From contig CARHSH010000001.1 in the NCBI GenBank assembly GCA_948989975.1, forward strand, positions 82,906 through 146,905: 64,000 nt of DNA, read 5' to 3'. The translations under genes were made by a program, and so were the position numbers. The DNA comes from an uncultured Lachnospiraceae bacterium (GTDB lineage: Bacteria > Bacillota > Clostridia > Lachnospirales > Lachnospiraceae). This document shows, piece by piece, positions 669 to 49,824 of the stretch. Numbering within the stretch: position 1 is the first letter of the stretch; every line of letters begins with the position of its first letter. Below the pieces are notes generated by a model. That model ran no database searches. It was not told the origin of the DNA and saw nothing but the letters and a program-made list of their open reading frames with translations.

Positions 669-760
669 CATTTTATTTTGTTCTAAAGTTTCTATAGGAA
701 ATATCCGATATATACATATAGCAGTGATTTTGGGCGTATTGTAAAAAACCCAAAAATCAA

Positions 761-770
761 GGGGGGGGGG
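761..770. repeat. Homopolymeric G10 tract in an intergenic region (candidate slipped-strand contingency repeat)
   Basis: Ten consecutive G at 761-770 in an otherwise AT-rich spacer between two paralogous GT-like genes. It lies 10 nt upstream of a 38-codon small ORF (780-896). Confidence 0.9.
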
Positions 771-893
771 ATAAACAGAATGAATAATTTTGCTTTGGAT
801 CGTTTTTCCAATTATATAAATAAAGAGTTTTGTATTGCCCTTCCGGGTGGTTTTGCAAAGAATCATTACTGGGCATCTATGATGCGTAAATAG

Positions 894-926
894 AAAGTTG
901 ACAGTTGTCAACTTTTTTGTTTTATA
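894..926 (+). terminator. Perfect palindrome AAAGTTGACAgTTGTCAACTTT followed by a T tract; intrinsic-terminator-like, and also carries TTGACA on both strands (possible operator or -35)
   Basis: 10-bp perfect inverted repeat centred on G904, followed by TTTTTTGTTTT. It sits 40 bp upstream of the 966 start codon. Confidence 0.4.
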
Positions 927-965
927 GAACACAAGTAAAATTAAGAAGGGGATGAGAGGCTTTTA

Positions 966-3597: not shown

Positions 3598-4599
3598 ATG
3601 AACGATATTTTTGAAAACAAGTCAGTGCTGATTACCGGAGGGACAGGTTCTTTGGGAAAGTATTTTACAAGATACATTCTGACGCATTTTAATCCGCATC
3701 GGGTAGTGATATTTTCGCGTGATGAATATAAACAGAGCATGATGAAACAGGAATTTGCGCAGTATGGGGATAAGCTGAGATTTTTTATCGGTGACGTGAG
3801 GGATAAAGACAGGCTTCTAAGGGCGTTCGACAGAGTGCAGATTGTAATTCATGCAGCAGCGATTAAACAGGTGCCGACTTGTGAATATAACCCGATAGAG
3901 GCTATTAGGACGAATATTAATGGGGCGATGAATGTCATTGACGCCGCGATTGACCGGAAGGTGGAGTGTGTTGTGGCGTTGTCAACGGACAAAGCGGTGA
4001 ACCCGGTAAACTTATATGGCGGAACAAAATTAGTTTCGGACAAGCTTTTTGTGGCGGCGAATGCCTATGCAAAAATTTCAGGGACAAAGTTTAGCGTTGT
4101 CCGGTATGGAAATGTGGCGGGCAGCAGGGGAAGCGTGATCCCGTTTTTTGAGAAACTTATGGCGGAAGGAAAGACAACGCTTCCGGTGACGGACGTGCGC
4201 ATGACGCGGTTTTGGATTGATTTGGAGCAAGGGGTTAAATTAATTTTAAAAGCTTTATATACGGCTGTTGGCGGCGAAGTTTTCGTTTCTAAAATACCTT
4301 CTTTTAAAGTGACGGATTTGGTAAAAGCCATGAATCCGGATGGTTCCATTGAGGAAGTCGGTATCCGTGAAGGGGAAAAGCTGCATGAAGTAATGATTAC
4401 AGATGTAGATTCAAGAAGGACGGTTGAATTAGGGGACTGTTATGTGATTATGCCGGAATTTTCATGGTATAAGCCAAATGAAGAAATAAAAGCGGGGAAA
4501 AAGCTTCCAGATGAATTTGTTTATAGTTCAGATAAAAATACGAGCTGGCTTTCTGTGGAACAGCTTCAAGAAAAATTAAAATTATATCGAAAGAAATAG
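3598..4599 (+). CDS. pseB: UDP-GlcNAc 4,6-dehydratase/5-epimerase (first step of pseudaminic acid biosynthesis)
   Basis: Collinear similarity to Campylobacter/Helicobacter PseB (FlaA1): ITGGTGSLGK, FFIGDVRDKDRL, LSTDKAVNPVNLYGGTKL, SVVRYGNVAGSRGSVIPFF, TRFWI. Confidence 0.85.
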   Translation: MNDIFENKSVLITGGTGSLGKYFTRYILTHFNPHRVVIFSRDEYKQSMMKQEFAQYGDKLRFFIGDVRDKDRLLRAFDRVQIVIHAAAIKQVPTCEYNPIEAIRTNINGAMNVIDAAIDRKVECVVALSTDKAVNPVNLYGGTKLVSDKLFVAANAYAKISGTKFSVVRYGNVAGSRGSVIPFFEKLMAEGKTTLPVTDVRMTRFWIDLEQGVKLILKALYTAVGGEVFVSKIPSFKVTDLVKAMNPDGSIEEVGIREGEKLHEVMITDVDSRRTVELGDCYVIMPEFSWYKPNEEIKAGKKLPDEFVYSSDKNTSWLSVEQLQEKLKLYRKK

Positions 4600-4609
4600 A
4601 GGGATTCAT

Positions 4610-6067
4610 TTGGAACGGTTTGAATTAACGGAAAAAACTAAACTATGGATTTACGGGGCAGCTTTTGGAGGAACGCTCTTATATGAAAAACTGCATAAGA
4701 ATCATTATCAGGTGGAAGGGTTTATAGATAAAAGGGCAGAGGAAATAGAGAGTTTATGCGGGCTTTCCGTCTATAGCGTAAAACAAGCCAAAGAACGTAT
4801 GGGACGTGGGCAGCTAACAGTCATTATTTCAGTGAAAAATGTGTTTGAACATAGCGGCATTGCCAGAGAGTTAATAAAAAATGGAATTACAAACATCATT
4901 TATAAGCCATATGCGGCTCTGAAAGGATTTGCAGACGAATCAGCAAAAGAAATGTTTGAGCTTCATAATCAGTTGATTGATTGCGGCTTTTGTAAGGGCG
5001 GCAGGTTTTGCAGGGCGGACGAAATAGAAAAGAATTGGGAAATCCCAAAAGAATATTTGCTGGCCAAAGATTCCAAAATGCAGACAGTTTTTCTGCCTCT
5101 GCCTATGCTGTTTGAAAACCAAAGCGTTACGGGCGGATATAAGGAACGGAATGTTTGTTTTTTATATCCGCATATACAATTCTTCCGGTATCTTCAAGGA
5201 GAAGCTGACGCTTCCTGCCAGCGCTATCTGGAGTATTGTGAGATGGCAGTGGAAGAATTGGATTCTTTTCAAGTTACGGAAGCGTGGAAAGAAAATGTGA
5301 TCCGAAACAGGGCAGATGTGTTTTACCAGATGAACCATGGGTTTTTGTTCCAGAAAGATTTTTTTGTCAGAAATTCGCCAGAGGCGGAATGGAATGAGGA
5401 CGGATACTTTAACTTGAAAAGCGGGAAGCACAGAGCGGCATTTTTTGCCGCCCGCCGTCAGATGTATATTCCCGTAAAGATCACTCATTCGGATGCAGAA
5501 AAATGGATTTCTGAGGATAGGGCAAATGAGGTGAAAAAAGAGCTTTTACAACAGGGCGTATTTGAATTAAAAGCTCCGGTTGAGCATCCATTTTTTTATC
5601 AGATGCCATGTACGGCAGAGAATTTTTTCTATGGCGTATGCTGCGCGTTGGCAGATGAACTCGGCGGGTTGTATTATCAAACGCCAATGGATCATGTATT
5701 GAAAGGCAAAAAGATATATTTGAATGTAGATGATTATGGGTTTGTCAGCCGTTTTTTCAGGAGAAGCGGGGCTATGGTATACGATGCCGATGAAAGGGAC
5801 CGGAAATTGAAAGAAGCGTTAGAAAGATTGTTTTCGCTTCATTTTGGAAGGCTTGTCGCCGCTCAGGAACATTACGACTTGGCGGTGTTTAAAACAGACT
5901 GCCCGCAAAATTTGAAGCAATGTCTGGAAACTATTTTGGCGGATCATTATTTTATCCTTGCCCCAGAGAGCATTTTGTTGGAAACTGAGTGGATAAAAAG
6001 AGTTTATTGTGGGGCTGCATGGGGAAAAAGCATGGTTTTGTGGCATTTGGAGAAATGTAATGTTTGA
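4610..6067 (+). CDS. Uncharacterised protein, paralog 1 of 3: NeuD/PglD-N-like Rossmann N-terminus plus central ParB/sulfiredoxin-like motif SGKHR
   Basis: 485 aa. N-terminus LWIYGAAFGG...YQVEGFIDKRAEE resembles the N-domain of NeuD/PglD acyltransferases. Motif FNLKSGKHRAAFFAARRQMYIPV resembles the ParB/Srx DGhHR-A-P signature. Homologous to 6060..7490 and 8555..9784. Confidence 0.5.
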   Translation: MERFELTEKTKLWIYGAAFGGTLLYEKLHKNHYQVEGFIDKRAEEIESLCGLSVYSVKQAKERMGRGQLTVIISVKNVFEHSGIARELIKNGITNIIYKPYAALKGFADESAKEMFELHNQLIDCGFCKGGRFCRADEIEKNWEIPKEYLLAKDSKMQTVFLPLPMLFENQSVTGGYKERNVCFLYPHIQFFRYLQGEADASCQRYLEYCEMAVEELDSFQVTEAWKENVIRNRADVFYQMNHGFLFQKDFFVRNSPEAEWNEDGYFNLKSGKHRAAFFAARRQMYIPVKITHSDAEKWISEDRANEVKKELLQQGVFELKAPVEHPFFYQMPCTAENFFYGVCCALADELGGLYYQTPMDHVLKGKKIYLNVDDYGFVSRFFRRSGAMVYDADERDRKLKEALERLFSLHFGRLVAAQEHYDLAVFKTDCPQNLKQCLETILADHYFILAPESILLETEWIKRVYCGAAWGKSMVLWHLEKCNV

Positions 6068-13964: not shown

Positions 13965-14872
13965 AACTTTGTTTAGGGACTGTCCAACAGGGATTGGAAT
14001 ATGGGATTAATAATAAGTATGGAAAGCCTTCAAAAGAGTATAGCCAAAAAATCTTTTACGAAGCGGTAAAGCATGGGATTACAATGTTTGATACGGCAAG
14101 GGCATATGGAGATGCAGAATTGCTTTTGGGGGAATATTTAAAAGAACATGGGAATCGAAATGAAATCAAGATCATATCAAAACTCCGTCCGAACATACTA
14201 GAAGGTTGTAAGGATATATACGATACGATATGCCGGGAATGTGAAGGCACTTTAAAGCGGATAGGCGTAGAATCCTTAGACGGATATTTGCTCCATACGC
14301 CGGAGTACATCCGAGATCCCAAAGTCGTTTCGGCTCTTTTAAAATTAAAGGAGGAGGGATATGCTTCGCATATAGGCGTATCCATTTACAATATAGAAGA
14401 CGGGGACGTTGCAATCAATACGGGGGCAGTTGACTATATACAGCTTCCTTTTAGCATATTTGACCAGCGCGGAAAAAACAGCGGATTTCTCCGGCGGGCA
14501 AAAGAAGCCAAAATTACGGTATTTGCAAGAAGCATATTTTTGCAGGGATTGTATTTTATGGATGCGGGCAGTCTGCCGGAAAAAGTGAAACGGGCAGAGC
14601 CTATGCTGCGGAACTGGGAGCTGATTTTAGAGGAGCGTCACGCCAATCGGGAAGAAGTCTTAATTGAATTTGTGAAACAGTCCAAAGAGATTGATTATCT
14701 TGTGTTTGGAGTAGACACAGTGGAACAGTTACAAAGAGATATTTCTGTATTCGAAAGCGAAAGTAAATTAGATGAAACTATTTGGAACATAATCGGTGAA
14801 AAATTTTCCGATGTGGAGGAAAGCATTATAATACCAAGTTTATGGGCGAAACAAGAAAGGAAGGGAAAATGA
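13961..14872 (+). CDS. Aldo/keto reductase family oxidoreductase
   Basis: FDTARAYGDAE, LDGYLLH, IGVSIYN: AKR signatures. ATGA overlap with the TPP enzyme. Confidence 0.7.
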   Translation: MKLCLGTVQQGLEYGINNKYGKPSKEYSQKIFYEAVKHGITMFDTARAYGDAELLLGEYLKEHGNRNEIKIISKLRPNILEGCKDIYDTICRECEGTLKRIGVESLDGYLLHTPEYIRDPKVVSALLKLKEEGYASHIGVSIYNIEDGDVAINTGAVDYIQLPFSIFDQRGKNSGFLRRAKEAKITVFARSIFLQGLYFMDAGSLPEKVKRAEPMLRNWELILEERHANREEVLIEFVKQSKEIDYLVFGVDTVEQLQRDISVFESESKLDETIWNIIGEKFSDVEESIIIPSLWAKQERKGK

Positions 14873-15571
14873 TGGGAGCAAAAAACATTTTTTTAACGAC
14901 AGAAGGGGACGCATGGTATAGGAGAAACCGTGAAAAGTTAGAAGAAGAAAGTGGATTTTCGGCGGTGGATTTAATGATTGATTTTCTAAATAGACAAAAA
15001 AAATCTCTGGGGGGGGGTAAATGGCTTTTCGTGGGATAAGCTGAATATTTTGGAAATCGGGTGTAGTTATGGATATAATCTGGCAAAGTTTTGCGAATCA
15101 TTTTCTTGTCAATGTTATGGAATTGAACCGTCAAAAGAAGCGGTAGAAGATGGAAATAGAAGATATAAGGATCTGCCAATTCAATTAACTCAGGGAACAG
15201 GGGATCTTTTGCCGTATGAGGCGGAATCTATGGATGTGGTTATAATGGGATTTTGCATGTTGTGGATGGAGCGGAAAGACATATTGCAGGCATACGCGCA
15301 AGCAGACAGAGTTTTGAAAACAAATGGGATTATGATGGTTTATGATTTTGATGCGAAAATGCCATATCTTAGGGATAATATCCATAATAGAGAAGTGTTT
15401 ACATATAAAATGGATTATGCGCAGCCGTTCATGGCTTTTCCAAACTATTATTTAATGGATAAGACCGTATTTTGCCATATGGGAAATTTTTTTGACAAAA
15501 GAATACAGGAAAGAATATCTTTGCAGATTTTATATAAAGAGTCTTTGGAGGATGCGTATAGGAAAGGATAA
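14869..15571 (+). pseudogene. Class I SAM methyltransferase (paralog of 15598..16293) split into 65-aa and 173-aa pieces by a +1 frameshift at a G9 tract; candidate phase-variable (currently OFF) gene
   Basis: Upstream frame gives MMGAKNIFLTTEGDAWYRRNREKLEE...FLNRQKKSLGGGKWLFVG*. The +1 frame directly after the G tract gives VNGFSWDKLNILEIGCSYGY, collinear with the intact paralog (MNGFAWERFKILEVGCSYGY). Removing one G (G8) restores a single ORF. Confidence 0.7.
15009..15017. repeat. Homopolymeric G9 tract inside a coding sequence (slipped-strand mispairing site)
   Basis: ctgGGGGGGGGtaaatgg. The paralog carries aagagcggtatgggaatgaatgg at the equivalent site, i.e. no homopolymer. Confidence 0.9.
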
Positions 15572-18413: not shown

Positions 18414-19454
18414 ATGGAAATGAAAATGTATCAGCTTATGAAAGAGCGCGCCTATGTAATTGCGGAAATGTCGGCAAATCATGCGGGCTCGAAAGAAACC
18501 GCGGTAAAACTAATTCATGCAGCGAAAATGGCGGGAGCGGACTGTGTGAAAATACAGACTTACACGGCGGATACGATGACGTTAGATTGTGATAACGCAT
18601 ATTTTCATATTGGAGATGGGACATGGAAAGGCGATACACTGTATTCTTTGTATGAAAAAGCGTATATGCCATGGGAATGGCAGGCGGAATTAAAGGAGGT
18701 CACAGAGACATTAGGCATGGATTTTTTGTCCACTCCATTTGATAAGACGTCGGTGGATTTTTTGGAAAGCCTTGACGTGGCGGCGTATAAGATTGCATCG
18801 TTTGAGCTGACAGATCTTCCGCTGATTCAGTATGTGGCATCGAAAGGAAAACCGGTGATTCTGTCGACGGGCATGGCGGAGTTGTATGAAATAGACGAAG
18901 CTGTAAAAACAATCCAGAGGGAACATAATTCTCAAATTATTTTAATGCACTGCGCAAGCGCGTATCCGGCGATTACAGAGGATATGAATTTGTATACAAT
19001 GCAAAATTTAAAAGAGATTTATCAAGTTCCGGTCGGGCTGTCCGATCATTCCATGGGTTCTGTCGGAGCCATTACAGCGGTGGCGTTAGGCGCGCAAATT
19101 ATTGAAAAACATTTTTGCCTTGACCGGGCCATTGAAACGCCGGATTCCTCATTTTCCATGAACCCTGCTGAGTTTCGGCAGATGGTATGTGACATACGGC
19201 AGGCGGAAAAAGCGTTAGGATTGGTCCGGTATGGGGTGAAAAGCCAAGAAAATCCAAATCTTGGCTTTAGGAGGTCTATTTTTGTCACCCAAGACATTAA
19301 AAAGGGGCAGAAGCTGACAGAAGAAAATATCCGGGTGATTCGGCCGGGATATGGGGCGCCTCCTAAATTTTATGGGGAAGCCTTGGGACAGACGGCTTTA
19401 AGTGACCTGAAAAGAGGCACACCTCTTAAGATTTCGGATATAGGAAGTGTGTAA
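18414..19454 (+). CDS. pseI: Pseudaminic acid synthase (NeuB family)
   Basis: Collinear with PseI: IAEMSANHAGS, VKIQTYTADTMTLD, YKIASFELTDLPLIQYVA, GLSDHS, IEKHFCLDR. Confidence 0.8.
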   Translation: MEMKMYQLMKERAYVIAEMSANHAGSKETAVKLIHAAKMAGADCVKIQTYTADTMTLDCDNAYFHIGDGTWKGDTLYSLYEKAYMPWEWQAELKEVTETLGMDFLSTPFDKTSVDFLESLDVAAYKIASFELTDLPLIQYVASKGKPVILSTGMAELYEIDEAVKTIQREHNSQIILMHCASAYPAITEDMNLYTMQNLKEIYQVPVGLSDHSMGSVGAITAVALGAQIIEKHFCLDRAIETPDSSFSMNPAEFRQMVCDIRQAEKALGLVRYGVKSQENPNLGFRRSIFVTQDIKKGQKLTEENIRVIRPGYGAPPKFYGEALGQTALSDLKRGTPLKISDIGSV

Positions 19455-26212: not shown

Positions 26213-26872
26213 ATGAATGATATTATCCTAATCGGCTCTGGAGGCTGTATGCGGGAGCTGGTCTGGCAGATACAGCAGTTGAACGGGGAATGCCGTGTAT
26301 GGAATATTTTAGGCTATGTTGACAAAGCCGATCGGTCCGGCGTTTCCGACATAAAAGTTTCCGGCCAGAGCATTCCCTATCTTGGCGGAGATGACTTCCT
26401 TTTACGCCGGACCGAACAGACGAATGCCGCTATATGTGTCGGGAATCCTTCCTTACGGAAAAAAATTGCCAAGAACATACAGAAAAACCCGCATATCTGT
26501 TTTCCTAATTTAATTTTAGGCAATGTAAAAATCTGCTCTGACGTACAAATCGGGAAAGGCTGTATTATCAGTATGGACGCCCGTATTTCTACGAATGTTG
26601 CATTGGGGGATTTTGTTTTTTTAAATATGGGAAGCGGGATCTGCCATGACGGAAAAATTGGAAATTATGTCACATTAAGCCCAGATGTGCGTCTTGCCGG
26701 AAACGTAACCGTGGAAGAAGGCTGTGACATTGGCATGGGAGCAAAGATTATACAGGGCAGGCATATCGGTGCAAATGCAGTGATCGGGGCAGGAAGCGTC
26801 GTCATCACTGACATAGCGGCTGGCTGCATGGCGGCCGGCGCGCCGGCAAAGGAGAAGAAGAAAAAAATATGA
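26213..26872 (+). CDS. NeuD/PglD-family hexapeptide sugar N-acetyltransferase (LegH-like)
   Basis: IILIGSGGCMRELVWQI...ILGYVD N-domain, plus left-handed beta-helix repeats (GNVTVEEGCDIGMGAKIIQGRHIGANAVIGAGSVV). Confidence 0.7.
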   Translation: MNDIILIGSGGCMRELVWQIQQLNGECRVWNILGYVDKADRSGVSDIKVSGQSIPYLGGDDFLLRRTEQTNAAICVGNPSLRKKIAKNIQKNPHICFPNLILGNVKICSDVQIGKGCIISMDARISTNVALGDFVFLNMGSGICHDGKIGNYVTLSPDVRLAGNVTVEEGCDIGMGAKIIQGRHIGANAVIGAGSVVITDIAAGCMAAGAPAKEKKKKI

Positions 26873-27858
26873 GCGTCACTATTATCGCCGAAGCAGGCGT
26901 AAACCATAATGGCAGTTTCACGCTTGCGAAGAAAATGGCAAAAGCCGCAAAAGATTCCGGAGCGGATTATGTCAAGTTCCAAACATTTAAACCGGAAAAT
27001 TTAGTTTCAAAATATGCCGCAAAAGCTGATTACCAAAAAGCATCTGGCAGTCAGGACGAAAACCAGTTGCAAATGTTAAAAAAGCTTGCCTTAACGGAAC
27101 AGGATTTTTTGGCATTAAAGCGGTACTGTGAAAGCATCGGGATCGGATTTTTGTCTACACCGTTTGATTTGGACAGCATAGAATTTCTAGATACCATAGG
27201 CATGGATTTCTGGAAATTGCCGTCTGGGGAAATTACAAATTATCTTTATTTAGAAAAAATTGCAAAGACGAAGAAAAAAATCGTTTTGTCCACGGGCATG
27301 TGTGAGATTTCAGAAATTCGGGACGCTATAACTGTTTTGAATAAAAACGGCGCAGCGGATCTTACGCTTTTGCATTGCAATACGGAATACCCGACGCCTT
27401 TTGCAGACGTAAATTTGCTCGCTATGCATCATTTAAAACGGGAATTTCAAATGCCTGTCGGATATTCTGACCATACGATTGGCATTGAAGTCCCCATTGC
27501 CGCCGCCGCGCTTGGCGCAGTTGTAATAGAAAAGCATTTTACGCTTGACAGAAATATGGAAGGCCCGGATCAGAAAGCCAGCTTAGAGACCAAAGGGCTT
27601 CGTCAAATGATACGCGCAATCCGCAATATAGAACGCAGCATGGGCGATGGTTATAAACGCCGCTCGCCTTCCGAAGAAAAAAACCTTGCCGCCGCCAGAA
27701 AAAGTCTTGTCGCAAAACGCGCGATCCGCAAAGGAGAGCTTTTTACAGCGGAGAACCTGACTGCAAAACGTCCGGGAAATGGGATAAGCCCGATGAAATG
27801 GAACGAAGTTTTAGGCATGGCGGCCGAAAAAGATTATGAGGTGGACGAACTGATATGA
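26869..27858 (+). CDS. legI: N-acylneuraminate/legionaminate synthase (NeuB family)
   Basis: IIAEAGVNHNGS, YVKFQTF, GYSDHT, IEKHFTLDR. Sits within the leg-type gene run. Confidence 0.75.
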   Translation: MSVTIIAEAGVNHNGSFTLAKKMAKAAKDSGADYVKFQTFKPENLVSKYAAKADYQKASGSQDENQLQMLKKLALTEQDFLALKRYCESIGIGFLSTPFDLDSIEFLDTIGMDFWKLPSGEITNYLYLEKIAKTKKKIVLSTGMCEISEIRDAITVLNKNGAADLTLLHCNTEYPTPFADVNLLAMHHLKREFQMPVGYSDHTIGIEVPIAAAALGAVVIEKHFTLDRNMEGPDQKASLETKGLRQMIRAIRNIERSMGDGYKRRSPSEEKNLAAARKSLVAKRAIRKGELFTAENLTAKRPGNGISPMKWNEVLGMAAEKDYEVDELI

Positions 27859-33989: not shown

Positions 33990-34280
33990 AAGAATCTTCA
34001 GGGCAGGGTGACTTTGCAAAGCAGGGGATTCCCTACCGGTGGTAAAGCCCACGAGCCGCAAGGCATGATTCGGTGACTCTTATCAAACGGCAAAAGCCGG
34101 ATAAGCGGGATTCCGAAGCCGACAGTATAGTCTGGATGAAAGAAGGTAAATGTCGTATCGTTTTTAGGCGCTTCCTGTATGCCATTTGGCTTTAAAAGAC
34201 GGCATATATAAGACGAGGGACATGGTTTGCATTGTGGGAGAACCGGCTCTGAAATAGATTGTTTCAGCGCCGGTTTTTTG
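33990..34280 (+). promoter_or_regulatory. FMN riboswitch (RFN element) with terminator-type expression platform, upstream of ribD
   Basis: Aptamer core tcttcaGGGCAGGGTGa...CCGGTGGTAAAGCCCACGAGCC...CCGAAGCCGACAGTATAGTCTGGATGAAAGAAGG. Terminator CCGGCTCTGAAAtagattgTTTCAGCGCCGG followed by TTTTTT. Confidence 0.85.
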
Positions 34281-48806: not shown

Positions 48807-49036
48807 GCCAAACAGAGCGCCGGGTATTCTGTCGGCGAAGTGTTCAGGGATTAAGGAGTTCTAAAGTATCCCATGTTTTATGCCGGTGACGGACGAAACC
48901 GCTCTAAAAGCGCCGTCCATGGCGCATTAGAGCTTCCGCAGACATCGTGTCTGCGGATTTCTGTTTGTTGAAGGGATACTTAAGAACTCCTAAATCCCAT
49001 CACAAGGCGCCAACAGAATACCCGGCGCTCTGTTCG
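48807..49036. repeat. Palindromic module IR1 (two ~66-bp inverted arms around a ~100-bp loop that itself contains a perfect 9-bp hairpin)
   Basis: Arms CGCCAAACAGAGCGCCGGGTATTCTGTCGGCG...GGGATTAAGGAGTTCTAAAGTATCCC and its near-perfect reverse complement at 48973-49036. Loop hairpin CCGCAGACAtcgTGTCTGCGG. Confidence 0.85.
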
Positions 49037-49611: not shown

Positions 49612-49824
49612 GGGGGTGGCGCTTGGCGGGTGGCGTTATGATTGGATTTAGAACTTCTTAACAGTCACATTTCGATTCAGGAATCCGCGAACAGGACGTT
49701 CGCGGAAGCTCCATTCACGCCATGGACGGCGTGTATGGAGCGGTTCCGTCCGTATTCAAGATAGCTGCGGGACTGTTTAGAAGTTCTTAATCCATGAATA
49801 AGTCACCCGCCAAGCGCCACCCCA
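49612..49824. repeat. Palindromic module IR2, an inverted (reverse-complement) copy of the IR1 module
   Basis: Arms GGGGGTGGCGCTTGGCGGGTG...GAACTTCTTAACAGTC and complement at 49763-49824. The loop's reverse complement aligns to the IR1 loop (ACGGACG-AACCGCTC...CGCCGTCCATGGCG...GAGCTTCCGC...GCGGATT). Confidence 0.8.

Follow-up and report, generated by a model that had tools for sequence, protein, structure and literature searches.

A hypervariable poly-G tract in a predicted sigma-28 leader ahead of a nonulosonic-acid glycosylation island of a Lachnospiraceae commensal

We analysed a 64,000-nucleotide stretch of DNA (hereafter the window) from an uncultured Lachnospiraceae bacterium (GenBank assembly GCA_948989975.1, contig CARHSH010000001.1, positions 82,906 to 146,905 of the forward strand), centred on the intergenic region 669–965 between two glycosyltransferase (GT)-like paralogues. 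This region carries a run of ten guanines whose length ranges from 9 to 15 G among independent assemblies of the same locus. Alignment with related species places the run at the Shine-Dalgarno (SD) position of a short leader open reading frame (ORF), which lies between a sigma-28-type promoter and a terminator-like hairpin. Both the hypervariability and this anatomy are solid. For the function of the tract we favour, at a probability of roughly 45%, a hypermutable SD within a sigma-28 leader/attenuator that would give graded tuning of the flagellin-glycosylation operon downstream. The elements of the region are as follows.

684–711, + strand: sigma-28 (FliA/SigD)-type promoter, with −35 TAAAGTTT at 684–691 and −10 CCGATAT at 705–711
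761–770, + strand: hypermutable poly-G tract, G10 here, at the SD position of the leader ORF
780–893, + strand: leader ORF of 37 codons plus a TAG stop at 891–893, from the ORF list and gene-called in public assemblies
892–917, + strand: terminator-like hairpin with an 11-bp stem and an AGUU loop, from pattern scan and folding
944–2681, + strand: SD (AAGAAGGGGA) and 571-amino-acid GT-like gene (966–2681; Pfam Glycos_transf_2)

Tract length varies between otherwise identical assemblies

The locus was collected from independent assemblies through exact-protein look-ups of the neighbouring genes, with 449–843 public assembly blocks per protein looked up; NCBI names the conspecific proteins after an ‘Eubacterium sp.’ metagenome-assembled genome (MAG). 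Locus copies from other assemblies or related genomes are labelled L001, L016 and so on. Among 25 assemblies, the tract holds 9 G in two, 10 G in ten, 11 G in six, 12 G in four, 14 G in two and 15 G in one, and thus exceeds the length at which homopolymers slip (about 7–8 nt or more). One intergenic haplotype is common to 15 of the 25, yet tract lengths of 9–15 G occur within it, and the tract is usually the sole difference within the intergenic region between assemblies. The window and L001, for example, are identical over 400 bases apart from four extra G. The original prediction had read the run, correctly placed at 761–770, as a contingency-type repeat and had proposed comparing it among related strains; the six length classes show that it is not invariant and bear that reading out.

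Two pairs of assemblies differ in tract length while showing no single-nucleotide polymorphism over 4.1–4.3 kb (L001 with 14 G against L002 with 15; L026 with 10 against L027 with 11). Assemblies that share a haplotype also agree exactly, with 10 G in each of L003, L019 and L031 and 11 G in each of L041–L043. Taken together, these two observations indicate that the variation is heritable and reproducible, arises faster than point mutation and is not assembly noise. An origin of the length differences in Illumina or assembler errors is accordingly very improbable: long G runs are error-prone, four contigs (L029, L033, L034 and L039) break or are chimeric at the tract and some have a coverage of 3–7x, but the differences reach 6 nt, the independent same-haplotype assemblies concur, and a second tract, in the methyltransferase gene described below, is equally spread over about 450 contigs from different pipelines.

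The contigs that end in or beside the tract, or join unrelated sequence there, are short or of low coverage (L029 1–60, L033 1–5, L034 1–15, L039 1–40), and L039 begins with a long poly-C artefact. Such breaks are suggestive of either mixed tract lengths within a sample or low-quality reads across the repeat.

The uninterrupted tract has been kept in three haplotype lineages despite changes in the adjoining bases (A760T; A771 lost or replaced). Between the window and L026 (2206–2500), 13 of the 297 intergenic positions differ, against 0.1–1.0% in the flanking genes of the same two lineages (12 of 1716 in the GT gene, 1 of 1002 in pseB), so that the intergenic region evolves 4–6 times faster than its flanks. 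The changes cluster just after the −10 element (715–716), around the tract and in the SD of the GT gene (956–957, GA to AG).

In the lineage of L026–L028, at the equivalent of window positions 758–782, the A760T change gives rise to an ATG that takes its G from the start of the tract. With G10 this ATG opens a four-codon mini-ORF (MGGG, then stop), and with G11 it is in frame with the leader ORF (MGGGVNR-MNNF...); no SD lies upstream of it.

Composition is a poor guide to the tract. The region had been described as part of an AT-rich genome, but the window has a G+C content of 43.4%, and G makes up 26.7% of the + strand because nearly all genes of the window lie on that strand. G10 is the longest G run in the window, and the sole other run of at least seven is a G9 at 15009–15017; the counts by length are 51 for G5, six for G6, none for G7–8 and one each for G9 and G10. 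A first-order composition model expects 0.6 runs of nine or more G, giving P of about 0.12 for two. Composition alone is thus weak evidence, both tracts being outliers only against the empirical decay of run lengths, and the decisive evidence that the tract is more than chance is its length polymorphism between assemblies.

The tract occupies the Shine-Dalgarno position of a leader ORF

Nine nucleotides separate G10 from the ATG of the leader ORF, not ten as first counted. The ORF had been reported as 38 codons at 780–896; the codon number holds if the stop is included, and the span is 780–893, encoding the 37-residue peptide MNNFALDRFSNYINKEFCIALPGGFAKNHYWASMMRK. No longer coding frame accommodates the tract. 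On the + strand, the in-frame stop at 684 is followed by no start codon before the ATG at 780, and the remaining frames stop immediately. A minus-strand ORF of 119 amino acids (573–932) crosses the tract, but it overlaps the end of the upstream gene, is broken by G14 or G15 and is not called as a gene in any fetched assembly.

Two related species carry long leaders behind an equivalent sigma-28 promoter, namely Eubacterium sp. 14-2 (L016) and a rabbit-gut MAG (L014):

L016 5385–5720 and L014 5466–5750: homologous sigma-28 leaders with promoter, hairpin, SD, short ORF, hairpin and glycosylation genes

In these leaders the promoter is followed by TTCAGGGAGGAAG (L016) or TTCAAGGAGGAAG (L014) with a short ORF, and then by a terminator-like hairpin with a T-run. 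Both short ORFs have a canonical GGAGG SD and an ATG (TTCAGGGAGGAAGTCATG in L016, TTCAAGGAGGAAGCATCATG in L014) and comprise 28 and 14 codons, respectively, with peptides unrelated to that of the window. MAFFT aligns the window’s ATCAAGGGGGGGGGG and ATCAAGGGGGGGGGGAT with the SDs of L016 and L014, and by this alignment the poly-G tract stands where a conserved leader ORF has its SD. The layout of a short ORF and hairpin ahead of the GT gene, which had been proposed from the window alone, is thereby found again in two related species. A further small conserved hairpin, GCAGCATGGAAGCTGC, lies between promoter and SD in the L016 and L014 leaders.

The peptide itself is not conserved. Eight variants occur within the 90% cluster, in addition to that of L021, and 13 of the 37 positions vary, compared with 14 of 571 in the adjacent GT protein; a Fisher test on the nine positions variable within the cluster, with about 16 of 571 in the GT for comparison, gives P = 4e-6. 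All nine substitutions in the leader ORF, of which L021 has six and the L026 lineage three, are nonsynonymous and none is synonymous, and the stop codon has been swapped in place from TAG to TAA. A tblastn search with the peptide against 14 related loci found no match, and a look-up of one peptide variant (P0003) in the public collection returned no record. We therefore rejected a conserved small-protein gene, on the grounds of the exclusively nonsynonymous change, the varying residues and the lack of a homologue in the relatives. The ORF is probably translated, with a peptide sequence free of constraint, and leader ORFs typically have unconserved products. Any importance of the ORF would then lie in its translation and not in its product.

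Homology searches of the intergenic region (blastn and nhmmer against the window and all collected loci) returned only the same locus in conspecifics, with no copies of a repeat or mobile element. Rfam searches of 640–1000 at gathering and permissive thresholds yielded no family, a Phe_leader match at E = 4.9 being at chance level, and an exact-flank DNA pattern with a variable gap had 0 matches in metagenome contigs of the Joint Genome Institute (JGI).

A sigma-28-type promoter precedes the tract

The promoter reads TAAAGTTT-N12-TCCGATAT, with 17 nt between TAAA and CCGATAT, and fits the consensus TAAA-N15-17-CCGATAT published for sigma-28 promoters of Roseburia and Eubacterium flagellin genes (PMC3720852). 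Only one match to TAAAGTTT-N10-13-CCGATA occurs in the window, where 0.02 are expected by chance; a looser sigma-28 pattern was not significant in the window. The same motif lies 40–430 nt upstream of flagellin genes in eight related loci (products beginning M(A)MVVQHN...) and upstream of the first glycosylation-cluster gene in four, and it is invariant in every assembly that covers it. These matches suggest use of the promoter by sigma-28, with transcription predicted to start near 718–721.

On this placement the tract begins about 50 nt downstream of the −10 element, at approximately +42 to +51. The original prediction had offered a leader/attenuator or a phase-variable promoter; the first half stands as a predicted transcribed leader with an ORF and a hairpin, while promoter variation does not, since no −35/−10 pair flanks the tract and the only convincing promoter lies well upstream of it. 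An intergenic tract ahead of a surface-glycan gene is the usual setting for repeats that alter −35/−10 or activator-site spacing, as in porA, fim and hif, but the position of this one inside the leader, with the start of the leader ORF just downstream, excludes a promoter-spacer model on anatomy, and we give such a model next to no credence.

A scan of 669–950 for sigma-70-like promoters called none, and a pattern scan found no good sigma-A promoter between the hairpin and the GT start. Without an independent promoter downstream of the hairpin, the 32-kb + strand array that begins with the GT gene probably depends on read-through.

The upstream paralogue differs in its leader.

42–668, + strand: 3′ part (208 amino acids) of the upstream GT-like paralogue, from the ORF list; the full gene, elsewhere, encodes 561 amino acids

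Its full-length form is found in L001 at 4014–5699. There, at 3960–4016, the paralogue has a sigma-28-like −10 of its own (TCCGATAT), a leader of about 33 nt and a GAGGGGG SD. As this leader is short, some 220 nt of leader, with tract, ORF and hairpin, are specific to the second paralogue.

A terminator-like hairpin overlaps the end of the leader ORF

The structure had been noted as a perfect 22-bp palindrome; 894–915 in fact consists of two 10-nt arms (AAAGTTGACA and TGTCAACTTT) around a GT centre that is not self-complementary. As RNA, the stem would span 892–917, so that the stop codon at 891–893 overlaps its foot. A T-run, TTTTTTGTTTT (913–923), starts within the 3′ arm and extends 6 nt past the stem, and the hairpin with its flanks has a folding energy of −12.5 kcal/mol. 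In the predicted leader ensemble the hairpin forms at P of about 0.85, with no competing helix on its arms. These features are consistent with termination at this site.

The stem is also preserved across species, the hairpin AAGAAGTTGGCATTTGTCAGCTTTTTT of L016 being visibly homologous to AGAAAGTTGACAGTTGTCAACTTTTTT of the window. Over five haplotypes or species, 55 of 55 stem cells are paired, compared with 38–66% when the partners are slid. There are about seven one-sided substitutions in the stem, all of which preserve pairing; 6 of the 11 pairs vary on one side and 0 of 11 on both. This gives moderate support for a constrained helix. A degenerate pattern of the hairpin had 21 matches in JGI metagenome contigs, and only L061, from the species of L016, is a true homologue; the others were set aside as unrelated terminators or operators.

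A second tract switches a methyltransferase gene in the same island

14869–15571, + strand: S-adenosylmethionine (SAM)-dependent methyltransferase gene with a G9 tract at 15009–15017, phase-OFF in the window

The methyltransferase tract had been pointed out in the original prediction, and its nature is clear. With G9 the gene encodes 56 amino acids, whereas G8 or G11 gives 233 or 234 amino acids with a complete Methyltransf_11/25 domain. Exact-product look-ups for each length in public contigs, summed over two alternative start calls, returned 20 contigs for G7, 59 for G8, 321 for G9, 45 for G10 and 7 for G11. About 15% thus carry an in-frame methyltransferase. The tract is a genuine intragenic ON/OFF frameshift switch, with both alleles present in nature across five length classes. 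An A8 run (14996–15003) lies 5 nt upstream of this G9.

Related Lachnospiraceae islands carry G7–G9 tracts inside ORFs, two of them out of frame as sequenced:

L017 13685; L015 8454, 9034 and 10597; L010 9293; L004 17549; L005 678; L013 10536: tracts in related islands

The tract of L015 at 9034 is out of frame and would need G7 or G10 for a 399-amino-acid product. Judged by eye, the protein with the L005 G7 tract appears Maf-like (DUF115-type) and that with the L010 G8 tract resembles an FkbM-like methyltransferase. Together these tracts suggest a clade-wide glycan phasome. In L017 the G9 ends an epimerase ORF and precedes by 7 nt a candidate ATG of a GT2 gene, which makes it a second possible instance of poly-G at an SD position, although another ATG with its own SD follows.

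A proposed leader mechanism and its alternatives

In the mechanism that we favour, transcription would run from the promoter at 684–711, starting at about 718–721, into a leader with an SD and a short ORF whose peptide is free to drift. Next would come the intrinsic-terminator hairpin, its foot overlapping the ORF stop, and beyond it the GT gene and a long sugar operon. In the species of the window, a poly-G repeat would have taken the place of the SD and would itself serve as a very strong one, and replication slippage at this repeat would leave sister lineages with 9 to 15 G. Repeat length would then translate into a graded, heritable level of leader-ORF translation or of leader-RNA binding. 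On reaching the end of the leader ORF, a ribosome would mask the hairpin’s 5′ arm, so that leader translation would set read-through, or the supply of stable mRNA, into the operon. Tract length may in this way affect expression, and in favour of such a role are the methyltransferase switch in the same island and the G7–G9 in-ORF tracts of the related islands.

Several points weigh against this mechanism, beginning with the modelling of the leader RNA.

838–844, + strand: CCCUUCC, the predicted pairing partner of the G tract, invariant in all haplotypes

In partition-function calculations the tract pairs with CCCUUCC at a predicted P of 0.85–0.96 for every length from G7 to G18, and the ensemble fold of the leader is unchanged over this range, showing no dependence on length. 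The SD duplex is predicted at −16.2 kcal/mol, compared with −11 to −13 kcal/mol for the canonical SDs of the relatives (on an assumed Bacillus-type 16S tail); with the same assumed anti-SD its energy reaches a plateau from G10 upwards and its spacing to the AUG is constant. As the 3′ edge of the tract stays at a fixed distance from the start codon, SD function could be independent of length. RNA polymerase outruns ribosomes in Bacillus subtilis, which makes ribosome-coupled attenuation less likely in Firmicutes. The relatives add further difficulties: about 35 nt lie between the stop of the leader ORF and the hairpin that follows it in L016 and L014, so that occlusion of the terminator at the stop codon is not conserved, and in L016 a sigma-A-like promoter (TTGGCA-18-TATCAT, 10/12) overlaps the hairpin, so that the genes downstream there may not depend on read-through. 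Finally, the hairpin stem of the window is AT-rich, with only three G-C pairs.

The leader as a whole is modestly structured (z = −2.4). CCCUUCC is also complementary to the SD of the GT gene (GAAGGGG), and a length-dependent refolding that would expose this SD was rejected: the ensemble is flat, and the pairing of 825–843 with 946–964, seen in one minimum-free-energy structure, has a P of only 0.02–0.10. A G-quadruplex in the tract would call for G11 or more to form two tetrads and for G15 to form three.

The lack of G10–G15 dependence in the fold and duplex models makes silent variation a serious rival, if on balance an unlikely one. Here a G-rich SD would have slipped into poly-G, growing on the upstream side of an unmoving 3′ edge, lengths of about nine or more would be equivalent, and the tract would drift neutrally with no switch. 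The constancy of SD-duplex energy and spacing from G10 to G16 and the insensitivity of the leader ensemble fit this, as does the broad length distribution, which peaks at 10 and gives no hint of selected classes. A G-rich SD (GGGG, AGGGG) is nothing unusual for other genes of the operon, the upstream paralogue having GAGGGGG, and the fast evolution of the intergenic region suggests weak constraint. Set against neutrality, length mattered in every studied leader G-repeat (PMC8295292, PMC7302503). Moreover, no other run of at least seven G but that at 15009 occurs in 64 kb, and G6 runs are depleted relative to expectation, which argues against a general tolerance of such expansions. The one further long tract, in the same island, works as a switch, and the leader tract has stayed uninterrupted in three lineages.

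A separate sigma-28 transcript is harder to sustain, and we regard it as improbable. The promoter at 684–711 and the terminator at 892–925 would delimit an RNA of about 200 nt, either a small RNA (sRNA) or a small-protein mRNA, and the tract would modulate this RNA only, leaving the GT operon to a weak sigma-A promoter with the TTGACA of the hairpin as its −35 and/or to read-through from the upstream paralogue. A promoter and a terminator some 200 nt apart have the anatomy of an sRNA gene, and sigma-28-dependent sRNAs are reportedly known in E. coli. The 5′ arm of the window’s hairpin does hold a perfect TTGACA (898–903), the L016 promoter overlaps the homologous hairpin, and the unconstrained leader peptide also agrees with this view. 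The candidate −10 elements, however, are poor (TTTATA at 17 nt, TATAGA at 19 nt), and the promoter scan called none. The strong SD and ATG conserved in the leaders of the relatives speak for translation rather than a pure sRNA, and no Rfam family matched.

Least favoured of the three is a trans-acting factor, for which we see a slim chance: the repeat would be bound by a C/U-rich sRNA loop or by a CsrA-like protein, with its length deciding between repression and activation. The precedent is the leader G-repeat of Helicobacter pylori tlpB-hp0102, where the sRNA RepG represses at 7–12 G and activates at 14 G or more (PMC8295292). The anatomy is alike, with a variable run of 6–16 G in the 5′ untranslated region of a glycosyltransferase operon under graded control, and the natural range of 9–15 G spans the change from repression to activation by RepG. 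The tract also sits within CAAGG...GGAU, resembling a CsrA site, but this resemblance amounts to an SD-like motif, and the two TwoAYGGAY RNAs of the window have loops that, by the AYGGAY motif that defines the family, contain G and are not C/U-rich.

Relation to known systems

Attenuators governed by a leader peptide or ribosome include pyrBI and ampC of E. coli and the ermC-type leaders of Firmicutes. The predicted leader shares their order of promoter, SD with short ORF, intrinsic terminator and structural genes, and its ORF stop overlaps the foot of the terminator, where a terminating ribosome would mask the 5′ arm. It differs in having no regulatory codons and no evident antiterminator helix, and in a stop-to-hairpin distance that is not conserved in the relatives. 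The variable input here would be a mutable SD, in place of the metabolite or antibiotic of the known attenuators.

H. pylori tlpB-hp0102 is alike in its variable leader G repeat (6–16 G there, 9–15 here), in an operon with a glycosyltransferase for a surface glycan and in the variation between strains (PMC8295292), and control there is graded and not ON/OFF. It differs in that the tract described here takes the SD position of a leader ORF, is followed by a terminator hairpin, lies behind a predicted sigma-28 promoter and belongs to a Gram-positive commensal. In Moraxella catarrhalis uspA1, a non-coding G tract (8–12 G) also lies upstream of the ORF and acts in a graded manner on mRNA, which changes about 21-fold between 8–10 G and 11–12 G (PMC7302503); the gene class (an adhesin there) and the organism are different, and no leader ORF or terminator is described there.

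The nearest likeness for the island as a whole is Campylobacter jejuni, in which G/C homopolymers are concentrated in the pseudaminic/legionaminic acid (Pse/Leg) flagellin glycosylation island (PMC3068675, PMC8355987, PMC6321876). Most of these are intragenic frameshift switches, which the window’s methyltransferase matches fully, and a minority are intergenic (PMC8355987). The dual Pse and Leg content of the window’s island is the same as that of the C. jejuni flagellar locus. Campylobacter, though, is an epsilonproteobacterial pathogen without classical mismatch repair, whereas the host of the window is a Lachnospiraceae commensal. Most descriptions of phase variation through repeats concern mucosal pathogens without full mismatch repair.

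A full-text literature search for repeat-driven variation in the flagellin glycosylation islands of Lachnospiraceae returned no report, and in a recent survey of Pse glycosylation of Clostridium flagella, phase variation comes up solely with reference to C. jejuni. Poly-G contingency loci in Campylobacter Pse/Leg islands (PMC8355987, PMC3068675) and graded leader G-repeats in H. pylori and Moraxella are already known. What is new is the host group of Gram-positive gut commensals, the position of the repeat, which stands at the predicted SD of a conserved sigma-28 leader ORF and ahead of a terminator, and the presence of ON and OFF alleles of a glycan-modifying methyltransferase in hundreds of public contigs.

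A broader proposal can be put forward tentatively, and we rate it as rather doubtful: the poly-G tract, as a mutable SD, would let replication errors determine in a heritable way the gain of a ribosome-dependent element, either an attenuator or an mRNA stabiliser, gating a 32-kb flagellin-glycan operon and, together with the frameshift tracts, would make up a Campylobacter-style glycan phasome on the immunodominant flagellins of flagellated gut Lachnospiraceae, the Roseburia/Eubacterium/Agathobacter group. Lachnospiraceae flagellins are prominent in recognition by the host and are targets of antibodies. The flagellins of Roseburia, Eubacterium and other Lachnospiraceae also have documented TLR5 activity (PMC3720852). 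If the proposal is true, a commensal may be able to change the sugars on its flagella in the manner of Campylobacter, and heritable, rapidly reversible variation of flagellin sugars would add a layer to host–commensal interaction and help to explain strain heterogeneity in metagenomes. Campylobacter-like repeats in the Pse/Leg flagellin island of a Gram-positive commensal would point to convergent evolution, and a repeat serving as SD upstream of a terminator would be an unusual coupling of mutation to post-initiation control.

The glycosylation island and its surroundings

The GT gene is the first of a + strand array that extends from 966 to about 33 kb. Homologues of its 571-amino-acid GT2 product, at 44–49% identity, occur in Roseburia faecis, Eubacterium sp. 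14-2, Agathobacter, Lachnobacterium and other Lachnospiraceae, and in the relatives they lie 2–4 kb downstream of flagellin genes. Within the array, PseB, PseC, PseG and PseI score above the NCBIfam equivalog cutoffs and are accompanied by PseF- and PseH-like enzymes. A second, NeuB pathway comprises a UDP-N-acetylglucosamine (UDP-GlcNAc) 2-epimerase, a PglD-like acetyltransferase, a LegC-type aminotransferase, a CBS-nucleotidyltransferase and a cytidylyltransferase. By its predicted enzymes, the array is a combined pseudaminic and legionaminic-type nonulosonic-acid island. It further encodes methyltransferases as well as radical-SAM and thiamine pyrophosphate (TPP) enzymes, and the window also contains a chemotaxis receptor gene.

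Two nonulosonic-acid synthases are encoded within 3598–33047, one of PseI type (18414–19454) with PseB, PseC and PseG, and one of NeuB/Leg type (26869–27858). Directly after the island, at 33990–34151 on the + strand, lies a flavin mononucleotide (FMN) riboswitch (82 bits). Further downstream, two full-length TwoAYGGAY RNAs (135 and 120 bits) occupy opposite strands 630 nt apart, at 48840–49005 (− strand) and 49636–49801 (+ strand).

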